Part shown: one piece after another, positions 3,762 through 57,129 of the stretch | Numbering within the stretch: the first letter of the stretch is position 1 | Layout: every line of letters begins with the position of its first letter | Origin: Methanobacteriota archaeon | GTDB taxonomy: Archaea > Undinarchaeota > Undinarchaeia > Undinarchaeales > Undinarchaeaceae | Direction: 5' to 3' | NCBI GenBank assembly: GCA_002687935.1 | Contig: NZBN01000006.1 | Coordinates: 4,144 to 68,143, forward strand | DNA: 64,000 nucleotides | The notes under the pieces: model-generated | Databases searched by the model: none | Told to the model about the DNA's origin: nothing | The model's input: the letters and a program-made list of their open reading frames with translations, nothing else | Translations under genes and position numbers: made by a program

Positions 3762-4365
3762 TATCGGCGGCTGAGGTTCCTATCATTGTTGGAAGTGCGA
3801 CAACAAGAATTAATTTGACTGACTCAGCAAAGCTATGACCAGGTCCGACTATTCCGAAGAAGGTGTAAGTCACTGTAACAATTAGAAGTGAGAGAAGGTA
3901 GAATATGACAAATCTTTTTGGAAGGAGTTTGAAAATTATTTTTTGTTCTTTAATTTTCCTGTACTGTGAGAAGTAGAGTACCGAAGCTCCGGCGAAAAGT
4001 GTGAAAATAACAATAATGGAAACAAAGGCAGGATGCATTGCTTTTGCACCTTCTATAACAACTTCATGCCAGGCTAGAGAGCCCATACCTATAATTCCGC
4101 CTATGAAACCCCGGGAAAAATCTTTGAAGGTAAATTTTTCTATGATTGGATTGCTGAGTTTTCTAAGTCCTGCGAGCTCTTTTTCGAATTCTTCGAACTC
4201 GACTTTTTCCTCTTTCCTCTCAGTTCGGACAAGTTTTTCCAGTGTTTCTATATCTTCCTCAATCTTTTCTAGACCTTTCTGAGTCTCTGTTTTCTTCTTT
4301 GGTTTTTTAACGGCTTTTGGCATGGATGCTTCCCTTACCTGTTGGTATAAATCGCTGTATTTCAT
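3751..4365 (-). CDS. membrane protein with charged coiled N-terminus and about 4 TM segments
   Basis: 204-aa ORF. A start at the ATG at 4323 (MPKAVKKPKKK) would reduce the overlap with the upstream gene. Hydrophobic C-terminal half. Confidence 0.5.
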   Translation of the reverse strand: MKYSDLYQQVREASMPKAVKKPKKKTETQKGLEKIEEDIETLEKLVRTERKEEKVEFEEFEKELAGLRKLSNPIIEKFTFKDFSRGFIGGIIGMGSLAWHEVVIEGAKAMHPAFVSIIVIFTLFAGASVLYFSQYRKIKEQKIIFKLLPKRFVIFYLLSLLIVTVTYTFFGIVGPGHSFAESVKLILVVALPTMIGTSAADIIR

Positions 4366-6031
4366 CCAGCTTTATATGTTTTAGTTTTTCAGAATCAGAC
4401 TTTGATGCTTTTTTTATCCAGGAAGCCTTTGCTTTTTTTGCAATATCACCAGATTTTGTAGGACCTGGGATAATAACAGAGAAATATTTTGCCTGTTTTT
4501 CAACGCTTTTTTCCGGACCGCCTATGACCTGCCATTTCTTTGTTAAGCCGATAGCGATTTTTAATTCTGTATTTCTGAAGTAATTCTTCTTGCCTTTTAT
4601 CATAAAGGCCCCTTTTCCTATATGTTCTCCACTGGGAGCCGATTTTGAAACCTGAATAGGATTTATCCAGTATACATCAGAGGTTCCGAGACCTCTCTGC
4701 CATGCTTTTGAGTAAGATACTGCGAACTCCGCAGTTTCTTTGAGACTTGTTATTGGAACATCTTTGCTTTCTAGACCGCCAGTTTTGATGACGCAAAAGG
4801 GAGCTCCGGTGACATCGGCGTGGAAAACTAAGTCCTTAGGCTCTGTGTGTTTTTTGATTATTATTTCATTAGTAGTTGCATCTTTTCCGCCTATGATGAG
4901 GAAACCGTCCGAACTGATGAACCAACGGAATTTTTCATACCATTCTCTTTTTACAGGCTCTTTTAAGACGGGGGCTGTTTTTTCAGCTTCCTTTTTCGCT
5001 GAGCCTAGTTTTTTCTCAGTTTTTTTTATGGAATCCAGAAGTCCGTCAATTTTTCCCTTGGACTTTTTGGACTTTTCGTAAAGTTTCCCTGCTTTTTCGA
5101 ATTCTCCTCTTTTAGAAAGTTCATCTGCCTCTTTTCTGAAAGTTTTTGAATTAGAAAGGAGTTTTGAGACCTGTTCTTTTTGTTTTTTCAAAATTTTTAA
5201 CTGACGAATTTCTTCTTCACTTAGTTCTTCGGAATCGACAGAAAAATGTTTGTCAACTTCTTCATTGAAAGTTTTTAATTCTGATTTCTCAGATTTGTTG
5301 ACATTTATTGGATACGGTCTTCCATCTCTGATATGTGGTTTTGGGCTCGCCGCTTCTTTTAGAATTTTATCAATTGTCTTGTGAAGTAAATTGATGTCTT
5401 CTTTACTAAGGGAATCTGCTTGAGTAGTTTTGTCTATTTTAGCACGGATACAGAGTTCTTCTGCATATTCGCCGCCGAAATTAAGTTTTGTTGCTAGAAC
5501 TTTGACGAGCTCCTTTTTTTCGGAAAGTGTTTCTTTGAGTTCTTTTTCTGTAAGTTTTAGGGGATTCGAACTTTCAGGGGGGAATTTGTAGAGCTCATGA
5601 GGTTTTAGAGTTCGACCCTTCCATTTTTGGCGACGGAGAGGCATAAGTATTTTTCGTGATTCGTCAAGGAGCATAATATTGCCGTTTCTGAACATTTCGG
5701 CGACAAGAGTTCTCTGTTCTTTTCCACTGAAATGGAAAAGAAGGACTCTGTCAAAATCGTGCTGTTCAATTAACTGGAGTTTTGAGTTTCCGAGGTGCTT
5801 CCTGAGATGCATTGTAAATCCGCTCGGAGTTTTTGGAAATTTTGTGGAATAGTTTGTAAGGTATGTTCCTTGAAGACTTATTGCAAGAAGCTTCTGCCCC
5901 TGAAAGCGAAGGTATATGCGGTCACCTTTCTGGTAAATTTTTGAAACTCGACTTCCCTCAAGTTGTCTCAATTCTGAGGCTATTGAAAATATGTCAAGAG
6001 ACGATAGCTCTTTTTTTGGCATTATATTCAC
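4307..6031 (-). CDS. NFACT-family protein (RqcH/FbpA-like, ribosome quality control)
   Basis: 574 aa. The N-terminus (LSSLDIFSIASELRQL...KIYQ) is typical of NFACT-N. Central coiled coil. DUF814/NFACT-R motif DLVFHADVTGAPFCVIK. Confidence 0.8.
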   Translation of the reverse strand: MNIMPKKELSSLDIFSIASELRQLEGSRVSKIYQKGDRIYLRFQGQKLLAISLQGTYLTNYSTKFPKTPSGFTMHLRKHLGNSKLQLIEQHDFDRVLLFHFSGKEQRTLVAEMFRNGNIMLLDESRKILMPLRRQKWKGRTLKPHELYKFPPESSNPLKLTEKELKETLSEKKELVKVLATKLNFGGEYAEELCIRAKIDKTTQADSLSKEDINLLHKTIDKILKEAASPKPHIRDGRPYPINVNKSEKSELKTFNEEVDKHFSVDSEELSEEEIRQLKILKKQKEQVSKLLSNSKTFRKEADELSKRGEFEKAGKLYEKSKKSKGKIDGLLDSIKKTEKKLGSAKKEAEKTAPVLKEPVKREWYEKFRWFISSDGFLIIGGKDATTNEIIIKKHTEPKDLVFHADVTGAPFCVIKTGGLESKDVPITSLKETAEFAVSYSKAWQRGLGTSDVYWINPIQVSKSAPSGEHIGKGAFMIKGKKNYFRNTELKIAIGLTKKWQVIGGPEKSVEKQAKYFSVIIPGPTKSGDIAKKAKASWIKKASKSDSEKLKHIKLDEIQRFIPTGKGSIHAKSR

Positions 6032-6756
6032 TCCGCACTTGGAGTCCGTTTTTTGAGACCGAGGAACTCCAGCTCGTCATCCTCATCGGACTCGTCGTGA
6101 GCTTTCTCGAATTTATCTAGGAGAGGTATTGTATCCTGGACTTTCTCCTGAAGAAGTAGATTTTCCCATTCATTTGCGGACAGGTCTTTCTTTGCACGAA
6201 TTTCAGAAAGAGATATACCACGAGGTTTCTTTTGAAGTTTTTCTTCCTTTCTTGCCTTTATGTCAGTGAATTTTGTTTTAGCGGCGTCTATCTTTTCCTT
6301 CATATCACTTGCATCACCTTCTCCAAGATATTCTACAAGTTTGTAAGTCGTTGACAGCATTCTTGTGCGTTCGTAAGGATCTGCTTTTATGAGACCGCGA
6401 CCAAGAAGGTCTTTGACATAATCATAGACTCTGTTGCCGAAGCGCTGAACAACAATCGACTGTTTAACAGGTTGTTTGTATGCTATAAATGAGAGAACTT
6501 TTACGAGGGCGCGAGACATATCCATCTGAGGAGCAAATGCCTTGACCTTGTGGAGATAGGCACTATCTATATCCATTTTGTATTCTCCCAGTTCATGAAT
6601 TATTTCAAGAGGAGAATTGCGGGCTCCGTATTCAAGGACAAGTTCATCGAGAAGGAGGACTATTGTGGACTCGTCTGATTCGACTAAGTCAGCCAGTTCT
6701 TTTGTGTCCATTCGCCGCCCAGAGATGAAAAGTGCGGCCTCTAATGTTTTCTTCAT
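6028..6756 (-). CDS. scpB: segregation and condensation protein B (ScpB) with charged C-terminal extension
   Basis: The N-terminus TLEAALFISGRRMDTKELADL and the tandem winged-helix pattern are typical of ScpB. ATGA overlap with the downstream NFACT gene. Confidence 0.75.
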   Translation of the reverse strand: MKKTLEAALFISGRRMDTKELADLVESDESTIVLLLDELVLEYGARNSPLEIIHELGEYKMDIDSAYLHKVKAFAPQMDMSRALVKVLSFIAYKQPVKQSIVVQRFGNRVYDYVKDLLGRGLIKADPYERTRMLSTTYKLVEYLGEGDASDMKEKIDAAKTKFTDIKARKEEKLQKKPRGISLSEIRAKKDLSANEWENLLLQEKVQDTIPLLDKFEKAHDESDEDDELEFLGLKKRTPSAE

Positions 6757-51531: not shown

Positions 51532-52603
51532 TGTAGAGGTTATATGGGACGCTGTAGAAATGCCCAAGCCTCTCCGAACGCACTGCAAAACTGTCAAAAA
51601 AAGCTGTGACAAAGTCATAGAGACCTTAGAAGCCCGCGGAATTTATCCTGACAAAGAAATTGTAAATTATGGTGCTCTTCTCCACGATGTCGGAAGAGTC
51701 ATAGACGGTGGCGTAAGACAAGGACTTGAGGGTTACAATATACTTCTTGAACTCGGCGTCCCCGAAGAAATAGCACTCTGTGCAAGAAACCACGTCGGTT
51801 CTGGAATCCCAAAAGAGGAAGCAGTTGAAAAAGGACTGCCTGAGGAAGATTTCATACCTGAAACACTTGAGCAAAAAATAGTCGCCTATGGCGACAATCT
51901 TGTGGCCTTTGACAAAATAACAAACTATTCTGAATTCAGAGCCGGTTTTGTAGAAAAATTTGGAGAAGTTTCAACACAGGTTGCAATGAGCGACCTTCTC
52001 CACTCTGAATTGACTGATTTCATAAGTCGTGATGAAATGCTAAATATAGAAAAAGCCGCCGAAATTCCAGTCCGCCAGCTTATGGACAATGTTGGAAAAG
52101 AAATCGCCAAAATTATAGATGGAAAATTCAGTGTCGAAGGGAAAAACATAGAAATTTACTGCGGTCCGGGAAATAATGGAGGGGACGGTTATTCAGCAGC
52201 ACTCTATCTTAAAGAAAAAGGTGCAAATATTGAAATTTTATCCTTTGGAAATCCAAAAAGCCCAGAGTCAAAGGACTTCAAAAGTTTATCGCTTGAAAAA
52301 AACATAAATCTCGCACTAGTTCTCAATTCAAAAGACCTTGCAACACCAGAAGCAGACATAATTATTGACTGCCTTCTCGGAACTGGATTAGAGGGTCCTG
52401 TAAAAGAGCCAATAAAGAGCGCAATATCTAAAATAAACAATTCAAGTGCAGTCATCGTCTCTGTCGATGTACCTTCCGGAATAGGAAGCAAAGTCCACGT
52501 AAATCCTGATTTGACTCTTGCTCTTCACAAAATAAAAAGAAAAATGGTCGGCTTCGGAAAAGTCGGCGATACATTAATCCTCAACATGGGAATTGAAAAC
52601 TAA
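51509..52603 (+). CDS. HD-domain protein fused to YjeF_N (NAD(P)H-hydrate epimerase) domain
   Basis: The N-terminal half carries LLHDVGR...NHVGSG...YGDNLV (HD, TIGR00295-like). The C-terminal half carries YCGPGNNGGDGYSAA (YjeF_N). An alternative ATG at 51560 avoids the overlap with grx. Confidence 0.7.
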   Translation: MKRKIKIDVEVIWDAVEMPKPLRTHCKTVKKSCDKVIETLEARGIYPDKEIVNYGALLHDVGRVIDGGVRQGLEGYNILLELGVPEEIALCARNHVGSGIPKEEAVEKGLPEEDFIPETLEQKIVAYGDNLVAFDKITNYSEFRAGFVEKFGEVSTQVAMSDLLHSELTDFISRDEMLNIEKAAEIPVRQLMDNVGKEIAKIIDGKFSVEGKNIEIYCGPGNNGGDGYSAALYLKEKGANIEILSFGNPKSPESKDFKSLSLEKNINLALVLNSKDLATPEADIIIDCLLGTGLEGPVKEPIKSAISKINNSSAVIVSVDVPSGIGSKVHVNPDLTLALHKIKRKMVGFGKVGDTLILNMGIEN

Positions 52604-53277
52604 TTTTTCTCAGAAAGAACATACAAATCTTCAAAAAGATTTTCCTGAGACAGCTTTATTCTACTTTCATTTGCCAGATGTAAAAGAGGCATTAGAGTAT
52701 TTATCATATCTTCCCTGTTCTTGGAAGGTAATAGCTCATCAAAGTGTATTTTTCCTCCCTCACTTTCCATTATTTTCTTATAGAGTGCCTCTATCTGCTC
52801 AGTTATATCAATTTCATCAAAAACCAGAACAAAGGGCTCTATCTTCACTTTCTTCTCTTTAGGTCTCATAGAAACCTCCAATTTCCCTATAAGGTCTTCA
52901 AGCGTTACCTTTCTGAGATGCTTTCTCTTAGTGATTAAAGTAAGAAGAGGAACTTCCTCACTCGGTCCGCTCTCTTCTTCTTCATCTCCAAACAAAAAGT
53001 CTTCATCACCACTAAGAAGCTCCTCATACGCTTCCCTTTCTTCAGCATCAACTAACCTGTCTGATTTCATCCTAAGAAGAATAGCCGCCGCCAAAAGAAG
53101 TCTTGCCGGAACCTTGAGGTCAAACTCTTTCATCTCGTTTATTCTTTCTGTATATTTTTCAGTAAGCCGAGATATGTCAATATCCCAGGGGTCCAGATTT
53201 TCCGAGCGCACAATATCCAGAAGAACATATTCCCAGGCACGTTCACTCTGCAATATCTGATCCAGATTAAGTTCCAT
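52600..53277 (-). CDS. scpA: segregation and condensation protein A (kleisin ScpA)
   Basis: 225 aa. DPWDIDISRLTEKY and LLLAAAILLRMKS blocks. 1-nt TAATG overlap with smc. Confidence 0.8.
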   Translation of the reverse strand: MELNLDQILQSERAWEYVLLDIVRSENLDPWDIDISRLTEKYTERINEMKEFDLKVPARLLLAAAILLRMKSDRLVDAEEREAYEELLSGDEDFLFGDEEEESGPSEEVPLLTLITKRKHLRKVTLEDLIGKLEVSMRPKEKKVKIEPFVLVFDEIDITEQIEALYKKIMESEGGKIHFDELLPSKNREDMINTLMPLLHLANESRIKLSQENLFEDLYVLSEKN

Positions 53278-55766
53278 TAATTAATTTGTCCTCCTTTCTC
53301 ATCCAATTCACTCATATCCATTCCAACCAACTGGGAGGTTCCTCCGTCAGTCATTGAAACACCAAATAATCTGTCTGCTTTCTTTATGACTGCATTATTA
53401 TGACTAACCAGAAGCACCTGAGAGTCCTTCATAATATCTGTCAGAAGATTTATGAATCTCATGGAGTTATTTTGGTCAAGAGCGGCATCAACTTCATCCA
53501 GAACATAGAAATGTGCAGGTTTGTATCTCTGTAGGGCGAAGATGAAAGCCAAGGCAGTTACAACCTTTTCTCCGCCGCTAAGAAGTTCTAAACCTGTGAT
53601 TTTTTTCCCTGCAGGACTTGCCTTTATATTCAGTCCTCCGGAAAGCGGGTCCTCCCCATTTTCAAGATAAAGTACTCCTTCTCCATTTACAGAGAGTCTC
53701 GGGAAAATTGCACTGAATTCCTCAGAGACTTTGTCGAAAACTTCCATAAAGACTCCTTTCTTCTTTAACTCAATTTCTTCTATAAATTCAAGAACCACAT
53801 TCCGTTCTTCCTGGAGTTTTGTAAATCGCTCATTGAAAGATTCAAAATCCGCAAAAGACACTTTATAGAGCTCTATGGCTTTCATATTAACAGGCTCTAT
53901 TTTTTCCATCTGCCTTTTTATTGCAGAAAGACTCCTTTCCATCTTATCAGCATCTATCTCCTGCATTTCCCTCCCCTCAAATTTCTGCATACTTATCTGC
54001 AAATCAGTAAGCCCTGCATCAACTCTGGCCTTTTCTATCCTCAAATCCCCAATGGACCTACGAATATTATCTCTCCGGGAAGAAAACTCATCCCGTTTAA
54101 GCTTAAGGCCGTTTATATTTTCCTGGAGTTTCTCCCTCTCTTTCTGGAAACCTTCAAAATCCTGTCCAAGTTGTTCAGACTGAACTTTCTTATGTTTCAG
54201 TTCTTTCTCATTTTCTGAAGTTTGAAGCTGTATTTCACCAATCTCGTCCAATAATTTATCCCTACTTTTTACATATTCATCTATTTCTGAGCTTGCTGTT
54301 TTTCGCCTTCTCTTAAATCCACCAGTTATTGCTCCGCTTTTCTCTGCAACATCTCCGTCGAGCGAAACCATTCTAAGCTTTCCAACAAGACCACGCACTT
54401 CCTTTAATCCACTAACAATGTAGGTATTTCCAAGAACATAACTGAAAACATTGCTGTAGCGTTCGTCAAAACTTACGAGCTTTCTTGCAGGACCAACTAT
54501 CCCATTCCCACTTCTTGGTTCTGGCCTGGGTCCCTTCACCTTATTAATCGGAAGGAAGGTGGCTCTTCCCATTTTTTCATCTTTCAGGAACTTGACACAG
54601 CTTATTGCAATGTCTTCATTTTCAACGACAATAAAATTATTCCTACTTCCAAGTGCTGACTCAATAGCGACCGCATATTTCTGGTCTACTGTAAAAAGCG
54701 AACCCACAGTTCCGTGAACTCCGTCTATCTCATCCTTCAGTGTATCACAGAGAGCACTCGTCCTTTCACCACTCATTGACTGGAGTTTTGCTATAAGCCC
54801 GTCAAGATGGGATATTTCTGACTGCTTTGACTCAATCTTATTCTGATTTATTGATATTTGTCCATTAAGATGCTCAATTTCAGTTCGTATATTTACTCTA
54901 TCTTCTCCGCCCTCTGTTATGAGTTTTGAATCTATATCAGAAAGATGAGCCTCCTTACTTTCAAGCTCAGTACTGGCCTTAGAAAATTCAGTCTCTGCTT
55001 CAGATAATTTCCCCTCCTCTCCTCCTAACTTTTCCTTAAATCTAGCCTCTTCCTTCTCAATATTCTTGAGTTTCGTATAAAGAAGATTAGCTTCTGTTTC
55101 AACAAGCTCTTCCTTTAGCTCAAGATAAGTTTCAGCATCTTCCTTCTCAGTTTTCAGACTACTCAAATGCTTCTTACGTTCTCCCATCACAATTATGAGC
55201 TCCTTAACTCGTGATTCCACAACATCAAGATCTTTCAGAGCCTTCAATTTCTTATCATCGTACTCGGATATCCCTGAAATGTCATCCAAAATCTGGCGCC
55301 TCTCCACAGGATCCATATCAATAAAATTCGTAACATCTCCTTGCAAGATTATATTGTGCCCGTCCGGGTCAAAATCGGAGAAGGACAGCAAATCAACAAT
55401 CTCAGTCCTCGTAACTTTCTTCCCGTTTATTCTGTAACTCATCGTCCCTTTCTGAGTCAGTCTTCTGCTGATACAAACTTCATCTTCATCATACGGGAGT
55501 TTCTTCGCTGTATTGTCAAGAATCAGAGAAACTTCAGTTTTTGCAGCTGGCTTCTTCCCCTTCCCTCCATTGAAAATCAACTGGGTAAGTTTTCCAGCTC
55601 TCATAGATTTTGCAGAGGTTTTTCCAAGAACAAAACAAATTGCATCACTAATGTTTGATTTTCCGGATCCATTCGGACCGACTACTGCTGTAAAACCTTT
55701 AGAAAGTGGAATAGACAATCTCTTGTCAAAAGATTTGAAACCCTCAAGCTCAAGTCGTTTTATCAT
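53277..55766 (-). CDS. smc: SMC protein with unusually short coiled-coil arms (829 aa)
   Basis: Head N: GPNGSGKSN. Hinge: about aa 345-500, ending GAITGG. Head C: LSGGEKVVTALAFIFAL and YVLDEVDAALD. Each arm is only about 175-185 aa. Confidence 0.85.
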   Translation of the reverse strand: MIKRLELEGFKSFDKRLSIPLSKGFTAVVGPNGSGKSNISDAICFVLGKTSAKSMRAGKLTQLIFNGGKGKKPAAKTEVSLILDNTAKKLPYDEDEVCISRRLTQKGTMSYRINGKKVTRTEIVDLLSFSDFDPDGHNIILQGDVTNFIDMDPVERRQILDDISGISEYDDKKLKALKDLDVVESRVKELIIVMGERKKHLSSLKTEKEDAETYLELKEELVETEANLLYTKLKNIEKEEARFKEKLGGEEGKLSEAETEFSKASTELESKEAHLSDIDSKLITEGGEDRVNIRTEIEHLNGQISINQNKIESKQSEISHLDGLIAKLQSMSGERTSALCDTLKDEIDGVHGTVGSLFTVDQKYAVAIESALGSRNNFIVVENEDIAISCVKFLKDEKMGRATFLPINKVKGPRPEPRSGNGIVGPARKLVSFDERYSNVFSYVLGNTYIVSGLKEVRGLVGKLRMVSLDGDVAEKSGAITGGFKRRRKTASSEIDEYVKSRDKLLDEIGEIQLQTSENEKELKHKKVQSEQLGQDFEGFQKEREKLQENINGLKLKRDEFSSRRDNIRRSIGDLRIEKARVDAGLTDLQISMQKFEGREMQEIDADKMERSLSAIKRQMEKIEPVNMKAIELYKVSFADFESFNERFTKLQEERNVVLEFIEEIELKKKGVFMEVFDKVSEEFSAIFPRLSVNGEGVLYLENGEDPLSGGLNIKASPAGKKITGLELLSGGEKVVTALAFIFALQRYKPAHFYVLDEVDAALDQNNSMRFINLLTDIMKDSQVLLVSHNNAVIKKADRLFGVSMTDGGTSQLVGMDMSELDEKGGQIN

Positions 55767-55815
55767 TTTAACAAGGAATCAGTAGTTAGTGATGGCTTAA
55801 ATCTCTTATTGGAAG

Positions 55816-57129
55816 CTAAGGTGTGAGCCTTTTCAGGTCTCTCGGAAAGAGAACAGTTTCTCGTACATTTTCCACTCCAGCTATAAGCATTGTAAGCCTG
55901 TCAACACCTATTGCCCAGCCAGCATGGGGCGGCATTCCATATTCGTAGAATTTTATTATATCTGCAAATTCCGCAGGATTAAGATCTTTCGCTTTAAGGT
56001 TTTCTATATATTGCGCCGCTTCGTGAACCCTTCTTCCACCTGAGGATATTTCAACACCCTCCATAAACAAGTCAAATCCATAGGAGATTTTTGGATTGTC
56101 TTCACGGTGCGCTATATAGAATGGTTTCATATCCATAGGATAATCGTGAACAATAACTGGACCCTTAAAATGGTCTGTTATCATCTTTTCATGTTCCCTG
56201 CTAGTATCGTCTCCCCACTTAATTTTTACTCCCTGTTTATCAAGAAACTCTACAGCCTCATCATATGTAATTCTCTTAAATGGAATTTTAGGAATTTTTA
56301 TCTTCTGTCCTAACATCTCAAGCGCTTCCATCTGCTTCTCTGAAACGTCAGAATAAATTCTATTAATTACCCCTTCTAAAATTTCCCAAGTGTCTTCCTC
56401 TGTTGCAAAACCTAGTTCAATATCCATTTGTGTAACTTCGGAAAGATGATGTATGGTGTCTGATGGTTCAGCCCTAAAAACATGCCCAATTTCAAAAACT
56501 CTTTCAAAACAGGCAGTCATCAATTCCTTGTAAAGTTGAGGACTCTGTCTCAAAAAAGCCTCTTTATCATAATAAGATACTGGAAAGAGTGCCGCCCCTC
56601 CTTCTGAAGCCGAGGCAATTATTTTAGGAGATTCAATTTCCATAAGTCCCTGCTCAGTAAAATACTCTCTTGCAGATTCAAGAATCTGATTTCTTATTTT
56701 GAAAACAGCAACACTCTTCGGCTTCCTCAGGTCAAGAACTCTTGAATTCAGCCTAGTGTCAAGATCTGAAGGAGTTTTTTCAGTTATCTCAAGAGGAAGT
56801 GGGGTCTTTGATTTGTTCAAAACAAAAATTTCCTCTGCCAGAACTTCAACTCCCCTGTTCGTTTTCGTGCTCTTCTTTATTTTTCCTTTAATTGCAATTA
56901 CATCCTCTCTGTTCAGTTCCTGCGCAATTTCAAAAGCCTTCTTCGTCTTTGAAAGAAAAGTTACTTGACAGTCTCCACTTCTGTCGGAAAGAACAACAAA
57001 AACCAGATTTCCAAGAAGCCGTATTTCTCTTGCCCAGCCCATAAGCACGGCGTCTTTTCCGTCCATAGCTGGAACTATTTCAGAAGCATAATGCGTCTTT
57101 CTGAGTTTCCCTATATTGTCCAAGTCCAT
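55816..57129 (-). CDS. aspS: aspartyl-tRNA synthetase (archaeal type)
   Basis: 437 aa. N-terminal OB fold. Class II motifs (FRAEPS, GGRRVH, GWAIGVDRL). Confidence 0.95.
   Translation of the reverse strand: MDLDNIGKLRKTHYASEIVPAMDGKDAVLMGWAREIRLLGNLVFVVLSDRSGDCQVTFLSKTKKAFEIAQELNREDVIAIKGKIKKSTKTNRGVEVLAEEIFVLNKSKTPLPLEITEKTPSDLDTRLNSRVLDLRKPKSVAVFKIRNQILESAREYFTEQGLMEIESPKIIASASEGGAALFPVSYYDKEAFLRQSPQLYKELMTACFERVFEIGHVFRAEPSDTIHHLSEVTQMDIELGFATEEDTWEILEGVINRIYSDVSEKQMEALEMLGQKIKIPKIPFKRITYDEAVEFLDKQGVKIKWGDDTSREHEKMITDHFKGPVIVHDYPMDMKPFYIAHREDNPKISYGFDLFMEGVEISSGGRRVHEAAQYIENLKAKDLNPAEFADIIKFYEYGMPPHAGWAIGVDRLTMLIAGVENVRETVLFPRDLKRLTP

Follow-up and report, generated by a model that had tools for sequence, protein, structure and literature searches.

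A half-arm Smc as a lineage-fixed length variant of Smc-ScpA(B) in DPANN archaea

The short smc gene and its product

Is an SMC protein with canonical heads and hinge but arms of half the usual length a genuine Smc, a different ATPase of the superfamily or the product of a damaged assembly? This question was raised by the smc gene at 53277..55766 (minus strand) of a 64,000-nucleotide stretch of contig NZBN01000006.1 from assembly GCA_002687935.1, an Undinarchaeota metagenome-assembled genome (MAG). This whole stretch is called the window hereafter, and all coordinates are window positions. The analyses presented here indicated a genuine length variant of Smc-ScpA(B) that is functional and has become fixed in its lineage. 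Judging from its sequence, the gene very probably encodes the genuine and functional Smc of this organism, which would form a ring with ScpA, possibly together with ScpB, using arms of ~180 residues per strand.

The gene comprises 829 codons and a stop. The frame is uninterrupted, as the initial annotation of this locus had stated without giving the strand, and the motifs named there were all found intact: GPNGSGKSN (aa 30-38), GAITGG (aa 478-483), LSGGEK (aa 729-734) and YVLDEVDAALD (aa 754-764). The Q-loop glutamine and the H-loop histidine are also present. Pfam analysis of the product returned SMC_N, wrapped over aa 1-811, and SMC_hinge (PF06470) at aa 348-456 with 105.8 bits. The NCBIfam model TIGR02169 (SMC_prok_A), the equivalog for archaeal-type Smc, was matched with 783.2 bits, above its cut-off of 729.4; the match is divided into three parts corresponding to profile positions 2-331, 509-673 and 837-1164. 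In an alignment of 58 sequences, residues K36, Q142, S730, G731, G732, D757, E758 and H789 were invariant, as were the hinge glycines G482 and G483. A whole-genome search with PF02463 detected this gene and one Rad50-like gene, leaving smc as the sole hinge-bearing SMC gene of the genome.

The domain layout was defined using an AlphaFold2 single-chain model built on 58 homologues, with a mean predicted local distance difference test score of 79.8. The N-terminal half of the ATPase head (aa 1-166; 55269..55766, minus strand like all domains described here) contains Walker A and the Q-loop residue Q142 and was delimited by sequence, invariant columns, AlphaFold2 and Foldseek. It is followed by the N-strand of the arm (aa 167-346, 180 aa; 54729..55268), modelled as helices 167-285, 288-331 and 334-346 and displaying heptad periodicity. 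The hinge dimerisation domain (aa 347-490; 54297..54728) was assigned from PF06470, the invariant G482/G483 pair and matches to the hinge chains 4RSJ and 3NWC. The C-strand of the arm (aa 491-665, ~175 aa; 53772..54296) was modelled as helices 491-530, 538-596, 606-623 and a last one from residue 630, and leads to the C-terminal half of the head (aa 666-829; 53277..53771), which contains the signature motif, Walker B, the H-loop residue H789 and the stop, as defined by sequence and invariant columns. The closest solved relatives are head/joint and hinge fragments of Pyrococcus Smc: Foldseek ranked the Pyrococcus yayanosii Smc head with joint (5XEI) first, with an E-value of 1.8e-40, and the hinge matched the Pyrococcus chains 4RSJ and 3NWC. 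A further hinge structure matched was 1GXL.

Alignment-averaged hydrophobicity showed a 3.5-residue periodicity in every arm segment (power 2.5-7.2), compared with values of at most 0.5 in the head and hinge controls. On the head-proximal part of the C-strand, the model contains a joint-like interruption at aa 597-629, including a PVNM motif (aa 624-627) common to short and long forms, after which the last helix enters the C-terminal head. A Pro/Gly-rich, indel-prone break at aa 286-287 of the N-strand, conserved across the short-armed proteins described below, pairs with a break at aa 531-537 of the C-strand, 40-60 residues below the hinge.

Arm lengths were measured in 301 SMC proteins as the linkers between hidden Markov models of the N-head, hinge and C-head built from the alignment. 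The Smc of the window has an N arm of 180 aa and a C arm of 177 aa. It belongs to a short class of 152 proteins with median lengths of 182 aa (standard deviation (sd) 3.8) for the N arm and 180 aa (sd 2.8) for the C arm. The long class (143 proteins) has medians of 350 and 344 aa, and Staphylococcus Smc has arms of 350 and 355 aa; a small middle class has both arms at 237-253 aa. No arm between 190 and 230 aa was found among the 301 proteins. Arm length within the short class is this tight while sequence identity drops to 33-40%. Measured on one scale, the arms are therefore about half the normal length, as first proposed (~180 aa per strand versus ~350 in canonical SMCs), corresponding to a physical length of ~26-27 nm against ~52 nm in the long class at 0.1485 nm per residue. 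The first estimate of 175-185 residues per arm segment was also correct, since the modelled helices span aa 167-346 and aa 491 to ~665.

Mechanical tuning of SMC arm length is generally assumed, mostly on the evidence of engineered Bacillus subtilis proteins. Buermann et al. (2017, Mol Cell 65:861, PMC5344682) describe natural SMC arm lengths as multimodal, peaking at 341 aa, at 238 aa and possibly, in a minor mode, at 163 aa, with a period of 91 aa. In the same study, engineered B. subtilis arms are described as functional only in length windows ~91 aa apart. Our own classes, at ~347, 248 and 181 aa, follow this step pattern (~100 aa, then ~70 aa) with an offset of 6-18 aa, which is due to different domain boundaries. 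Rescaled to the published measure (B. subtilis = 344), the 180/177-aa arms of the window Smc correspond to ~170 aa. In this quantised series, the short class lies two steps down from canonical arms. It most likely corresponds to the 163-aa minor mode, for which the available text names no organisms; the equation is made from lengths. The initial annotation had reasoned that arm length is tuned and that a half-length arm is consequently odd. The short class is not in conflict with tuning; it fits the published multimodal distribution.

Distribution of the short arm and rival explanations

A search with the single protein returned two close relatives only, and the wider homologue set was obtained by an alignment-based scan. 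The survey covered the window's own phylum, Aenigmatarchaeota, Nano/Woesearchaeota and Micrarchaeota. In the GTDB phylum of the window (genome size 0.6-1.1 Mb), TIGR02169 was matched in 17/17 genomes. The short form was found in all 13 genomes of the window's order, as proteins of either ~829-849 aa or ~905 aa, the latter differing not in their arms (179/178 aa) but in an additional tail at the C-terminus. The remaining four genomes of the phylum accounted for SMCs of 961, 1001 and 1101 aa and, in the fourth, for a contig-end fragment only. Aenigmatarchaeota (0.4-1.9 Mb) gave a hinge match in 146 of 151 cases, with open frames nearly all between 795 and 880 aa. Among the best 150 cluster representatives (50% identity clusters), ~26 belonged to the short class, and the taxon names of the cluster members of 10 divergent short- or middle-class representatives included almost none beyond Aenigmatarchaeota.

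This length survey had been named beforehand as the test that could refute the proposal of an isolated oddity, and it showed that the length class is common in the clade. A half-length Smc is unusual when compared with textbook SMCs, but not within its own clade, where it is found in 13/13 genomes of the order and in nearly all 146 hinge-bearing Aenigmatarchaeota. Shared by one Undinarchaeota order and Aenigmatarchaeota, the short arm represents an ancient state that is fixed and whose length is constrained.

The short arm occurs in DPANN archaea whose genomes measure 0.4-1.9 Mb, and reduced uncultured Bacilli and Mollicutes also have shortened SMCs (~960-980 aa). The short arm could accordingly be a neutral by-product of genome or cell miniaturisation, its exact length being untuned and without mechanistic meaning. 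However, lineages with similarly small genomes keep a full-length SMC. In the phylum of Nano/Woesearchaeota (0.5-2.1 Mb), where a hinge match was found in 68 of 71 cases, SMCs were 1143-1230 aa long once intein-bearing and contig-cut genes had been excluded. In the Micrarchaeota phylum (0.5-1.3 Mb; hinge match in 40 of 41), they were mostly 1100-1206 aa long; this tally includes one unpublished genome (G270), on which the conclusion does not depend. Short arms are therefore specific to lineages rather than a simple effect of small genomes. The small spread of short-class arms (sd ~3-4 aa at 33-40% identity), with no intermediates of 190-230 aa, indicated constraint and not drift. The ratio of non-synonymous to synonymous substitution rates (dN/dS) against an 88%-identical relative was 0.066 for the C-arm, which also argued against neutral reduction, and it was 0.025 for the N-head, 0.057 for the hinge and 0.049 for the C-head, all of these being upper bounds because dS is saturated overall (in the N-arm, too saturated for a ratio to be given). 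These ratios indicate that the short Smc is under selection. A neutral origin of its arm length is unlikely.

A second possibility is that the gene encodes another SMC-superfamily ATPase with naturally shorter arms, such as Rad50, arcadin-4, the archaea-specific SMC-related protein (ASRP) or an SMC5/6-like paralogue. A length of ~830 aa resembles that of Rad50 or arcadin-4, and the genome contains a second SMC_N protein of 812 aa. It is this 812-aa protein, however, that is Rad50/arcadin-like, whereas the 829-aa protein exceeds the equivalog cut-off of TIGR02169 and falls far short of those of the competing models (Rad50 at most 57 bits against cut-offs of at least 700, arcadin-4 41 against 860, ASRP 106 against 300). 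It has a true SMC hinge at the apex and no zinc hook, its gene is coupled to scpA, and phylogenetic trees placed it inside canonical archaeal SMC, within a DPANN clade. An identity other than Smc is thus very improbable.

The smc locus was also recovered independently of the source assembly, using assembled Logan contigs and not raw reads, so that rare or minor longer alleles would lie below the resolution of this comparison. Fifteen marine, seawater and vent studies contributed 20 runs with near-identical DNA. A single 10,731-nt contig from an independent run extends over positions 52600-55900 and differs there by 8 substitutions, being free of gaps and joints. In three further runs, the locus is tiled by contigs that contain neither indels nor joints and no foreign insertions. 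Although coiled-coil genes are of low complexity and the source is a 0.67-Mb MAG in 11 contigs with an estimated completeness of 86.6%, a repeat collapse that cut the internal arm out of a normal ~1170-aa smc, the refutation that had been envisaged for the short frame, can be dismissed as next to impossible given these four runs, the record of the identical 829-aa protein on 4 contigs, an 88%-identical homologue, likewise of 829 aa, in a further two MAGs (labels Undinarchaeales and UBA55), and arms equal within ~4 aa in more than 150 homologues drawn from many assemblies.

Several observations were made on other SMCs of these phyla. In the tailed Undinarchaeales proteins of ~890-910 aa (L013:548-3334 of G012; P0018, P0020, P0022-P0026), the tail extends ~75-100 aa past the head. 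Within the window's phylum, G001 encodes a hinge-bearing SMC of 961 aa (L011:562-3447) whose arms measure 253/245 aa and belong to the class one step below the canonical length; all three arm classes consequently occur in one GTDB phylum. Its sister is the 1001-aa SMC of G003 (L012:546-3551), in which no Pfam SMC_hinge was detectable and which TIGR02169 matches only at profile positions 3-498 and 684-1164; judging by its sequence, this DPANN protein appears to be an SMC that lacks the hinge or has it replaced.

Origin of the short arm and the part that is missing

Phylogenetic analyses were used to compare the two groups carrying the short arm. In a quick LG+G4 tree of the full alignment, the short Undinarchaeota (support 100) were sister to Aenigmatarchaeota (support 100), with a Shimodaira-Hasegawa-like approximate likelihood ratio (SH-aLRT) of 93 for the pairing. 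Restricting the alignment to head and hinge under the same model gave an SH-aLRT of 81. In a quick C20 mixture-model tree of head and hinge, the pairing collapsed into a four-way polytomy among DPANN groups. Two rival groupings withstood approximately unbiased (AU) tests (p 0.10 and 0.22). The arms of Undinarchaeota and Aenigmatarchaeota are near-identical in length and could be aligned almost without gaps, and a single origin of the short arm is for this reason favoured, with somewhat better than even confidence; a strong convergent constraint would yield the same pattern. We tentatively propose, at slightly less than even confidence, the more specific scenario in which the short arm arose once, when a common ancestor of the Undinarchaeota order and Aenigmatarchaeota lost roughly two coiled-coil superhelical periods, and has since been held at ~180 +/- 4 residues across both of these deep lineages.

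To locate the missing part, a profile of the short class was compared by hhalign with a profile of 40 long archaeal SMCs, both over the whole length and using arm sub-segments. The largest gaps between the two full profiles adjoin the hinge. Three arm segments were recognised as retained: the head-proximal N-strand (167-285, corresponding to long residues 169-284, probability 99.6%), the joint (602-665, corresponding to 961-1024, 99.5%) and the segment preceding the joint (538-596, corresponding to 896-953, 96.7%). The TIGR02169 mapping, the full-profile alignment and the sub-segment runs concurred on these retained parts. Approximately 170 residues per strand are absent, roughly long residues 331-505 and 727-895. 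A long reference model has its mid-arm breaks at 378-380 in the N-strand and 798-802 in the C-strand, within the region missing from the short form. The loss concerns the central to hinge-proximal arm, including the mid-arm break of the long form, the canonical elements being the ATPase head, the neck to which ScpA binds, the head-proximal joint and the hinge.

Partners, mechanism and known systems

The kleisin ScpA is normally encoded beside smc in archaea. Here, scpA (225 aa; 52600..53277, minus strand) was recognised by PF02616 with 63 bits, the NCBIfam ScpA models scoring below their cut-offs. Its start overlaps the smc stop in the sequence TAATG, which confirmed the overlap pointed out initially, and the two genes are translationally coupled. 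An scpB homologue (242 aa; 6028..6756, minus strand) lies 47 kb away from smc-scpA in the same window; it matched PF04079 with 89 bits (cut-off 27.4) and TIGR00281 with 61 bits (cut-off 89). In archaea, scpB is typically remote and ScpB often fails to bind ScpA (PMC7055376).

By analogy with canonical Smc-ScpAB, ATP-driven engagement of the heads would open an inter-arm lumen, smaller in the short form, and DNA capture or loop extrusion would proceed as in the canonical complex, with roughly half the reach per cycle. The rod of full-length Smc has seven arm-arm contacts (Diebold-Durand et al. 2017, PMC5526789), and a half-length rod must presumably have fewer.

Several points count against parts of the picture drawn here. 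ATPase activity, dimerisation, ring formation and loop extrusion were all deduced from homology. Given this frequent lack of ScpB binding in archaea, the complex may be a binary one of Smc and ScpA. Regarding the place of the deletion, alternative hhalign placements of coiled-coil sub-segments reached 46-79%, alignments of this kind being promiscuous; two deletions of ~85-90 aa flanking a retained mid-arm break could account for the short form instead, and the spacing of the breaks in the models would fit equally well. The shortfall per strand relative to canonical arms is 166-174 aa, or 1.8-1.9 times the 91-aa period, which is no clean integer. Finally, since our arm values lie 6-18 aa above the scale of PMC5344682, the equation of the short class with the 163-aa mode is a plausible proposal.

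Taken as a fixed two-step length variant, the short Smc can be set against known systems. It resembles Pyrococcus/Thermococcus Smc-ScpA(B) (TIGR02169; 5XEI, 5XNS, 4I99, 4RSJ) in its head motifs, joint, GG hinge, antiparallel coiled coil, adjacent scpA and remote scpB. It differs in having arms of ~180 and not ~350 aa per strand, with ~170 residues per strand gone, including the mid-arm break. Like the multimodal natural arms and the Mini-Smc of PMC5344682, it represents a discrete length class whose steps mirror the 341, 238 and 163 aa given in that study. The only functional shortened constructs found in its text have arms of 253-267 aa, whereas the class studied here, at ~170-180 aa, is natural, ancient and lineage-fixed. 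Intermediate-arm SMCs of ~920-980 aa (Leptospira, uncultured Bacilli/Mollicutes, G001) are also hinge-bearing with symmetrically shortened arms; those measured, from G001 and one uncultured Bacilli, have arms of ~240-253 aa and are one step shorter than canonical, compared with two steps for the window Smc. The hinge-less SMCs of ocean bacteria (Sussfeld et al. 2025, Environ Microbiome 20:65, PMC12153180) are likewise naturally shortened with intact heads. Those proteins have lost the hinge, which the window Smc keeps in canonical form (PF06470, 105.8 bits), and they are a different phenomenon. In the searchable literature, we found no description of an Smc that combines a hinge with half-length arms, be it for DPANN archaea in general or for Undinarchaeota or Aenigmatarchaeota in particular.

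The short class, whose arm length varies by no more than a few residues among hundreds of species, separates arm length from genome size, as sister lineages with genomes of the same size keep full-length arms, and it supports the existence of discrete allowed arm lengths. Loop-extrusion step size, rod formation and head-hinge communication could be compared between short and long Smc at 26 versus 52 nm. If the scenario of a single origin by loss of about two periods were true, evolution itself would have confirmed that SMC arms are quantised, no natural condensin with a hinge would be shorter, and the short class would be a ready-made system to relate arm length to loop-extrusion reach and step size. 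The gain is incremental: the length mode had been glimpsed in 2017, and databases already list the proteins as SMC.

An SMC-like protein of 835 aa was also observed in a Gaiellaceae MAG (Actinomycetota; L028:3495-6002). Its heads are intact, its hinge was matched only weakly and in part (27 bits, aa 376-429), and it resembles the hinge-less actinobacterial SMCs reported in 2025. The same MAG contains a second SMC fragment at a contig end.

Over-long SMC genes were encountered in both short- and long-arm lineages. Seven Aenigmatarchaeota frames measured ~1350-1400 aa, and over-long genes were noted in Aenigmatarchaeota (genomes G069, G098, G106, G091, G147, G043 and G156) and Nano/Woesearchaeota (G227, G232, G233 and G204). 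The additional ~500-550 codons are located at around residue 35, in the Walker A region (proteins P0118, P0124, P0131 and others). P0118, an Aenigmatarchaeota-like protein of this length, contains Pfam intein-splicing and LAGLIDADG domains, and the extra codons are therefore inteins in the Smc P-loop, in short- and long-arm lineages alike.

Regarding the other genes of the locus, smc is preceded on its own strand, at a distance of 49 nt, by a gene for an archaeal aspartyl-tRNA synthetase. The ScpB homologue extends ~80 residues beyond the Pfam ScpB domain, and the start of its gene overlaps the end of an upstream 574-aa open reading frame (4307-6031). The second SMC_N protein of the genome, the 812-aa Rad50/arcadin-like ATPase without a hinge, is encoded on contig C2 of G000 (L099:1468-3906, plus strand), and the genome has no third. 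It scored 195 bits with Rad50 and 146 bits with arcadin-4 models, both far below the cut-offs, and its gene neighbours are not Mre11 but an amino-acid permease and a DUF63 membrane protein.

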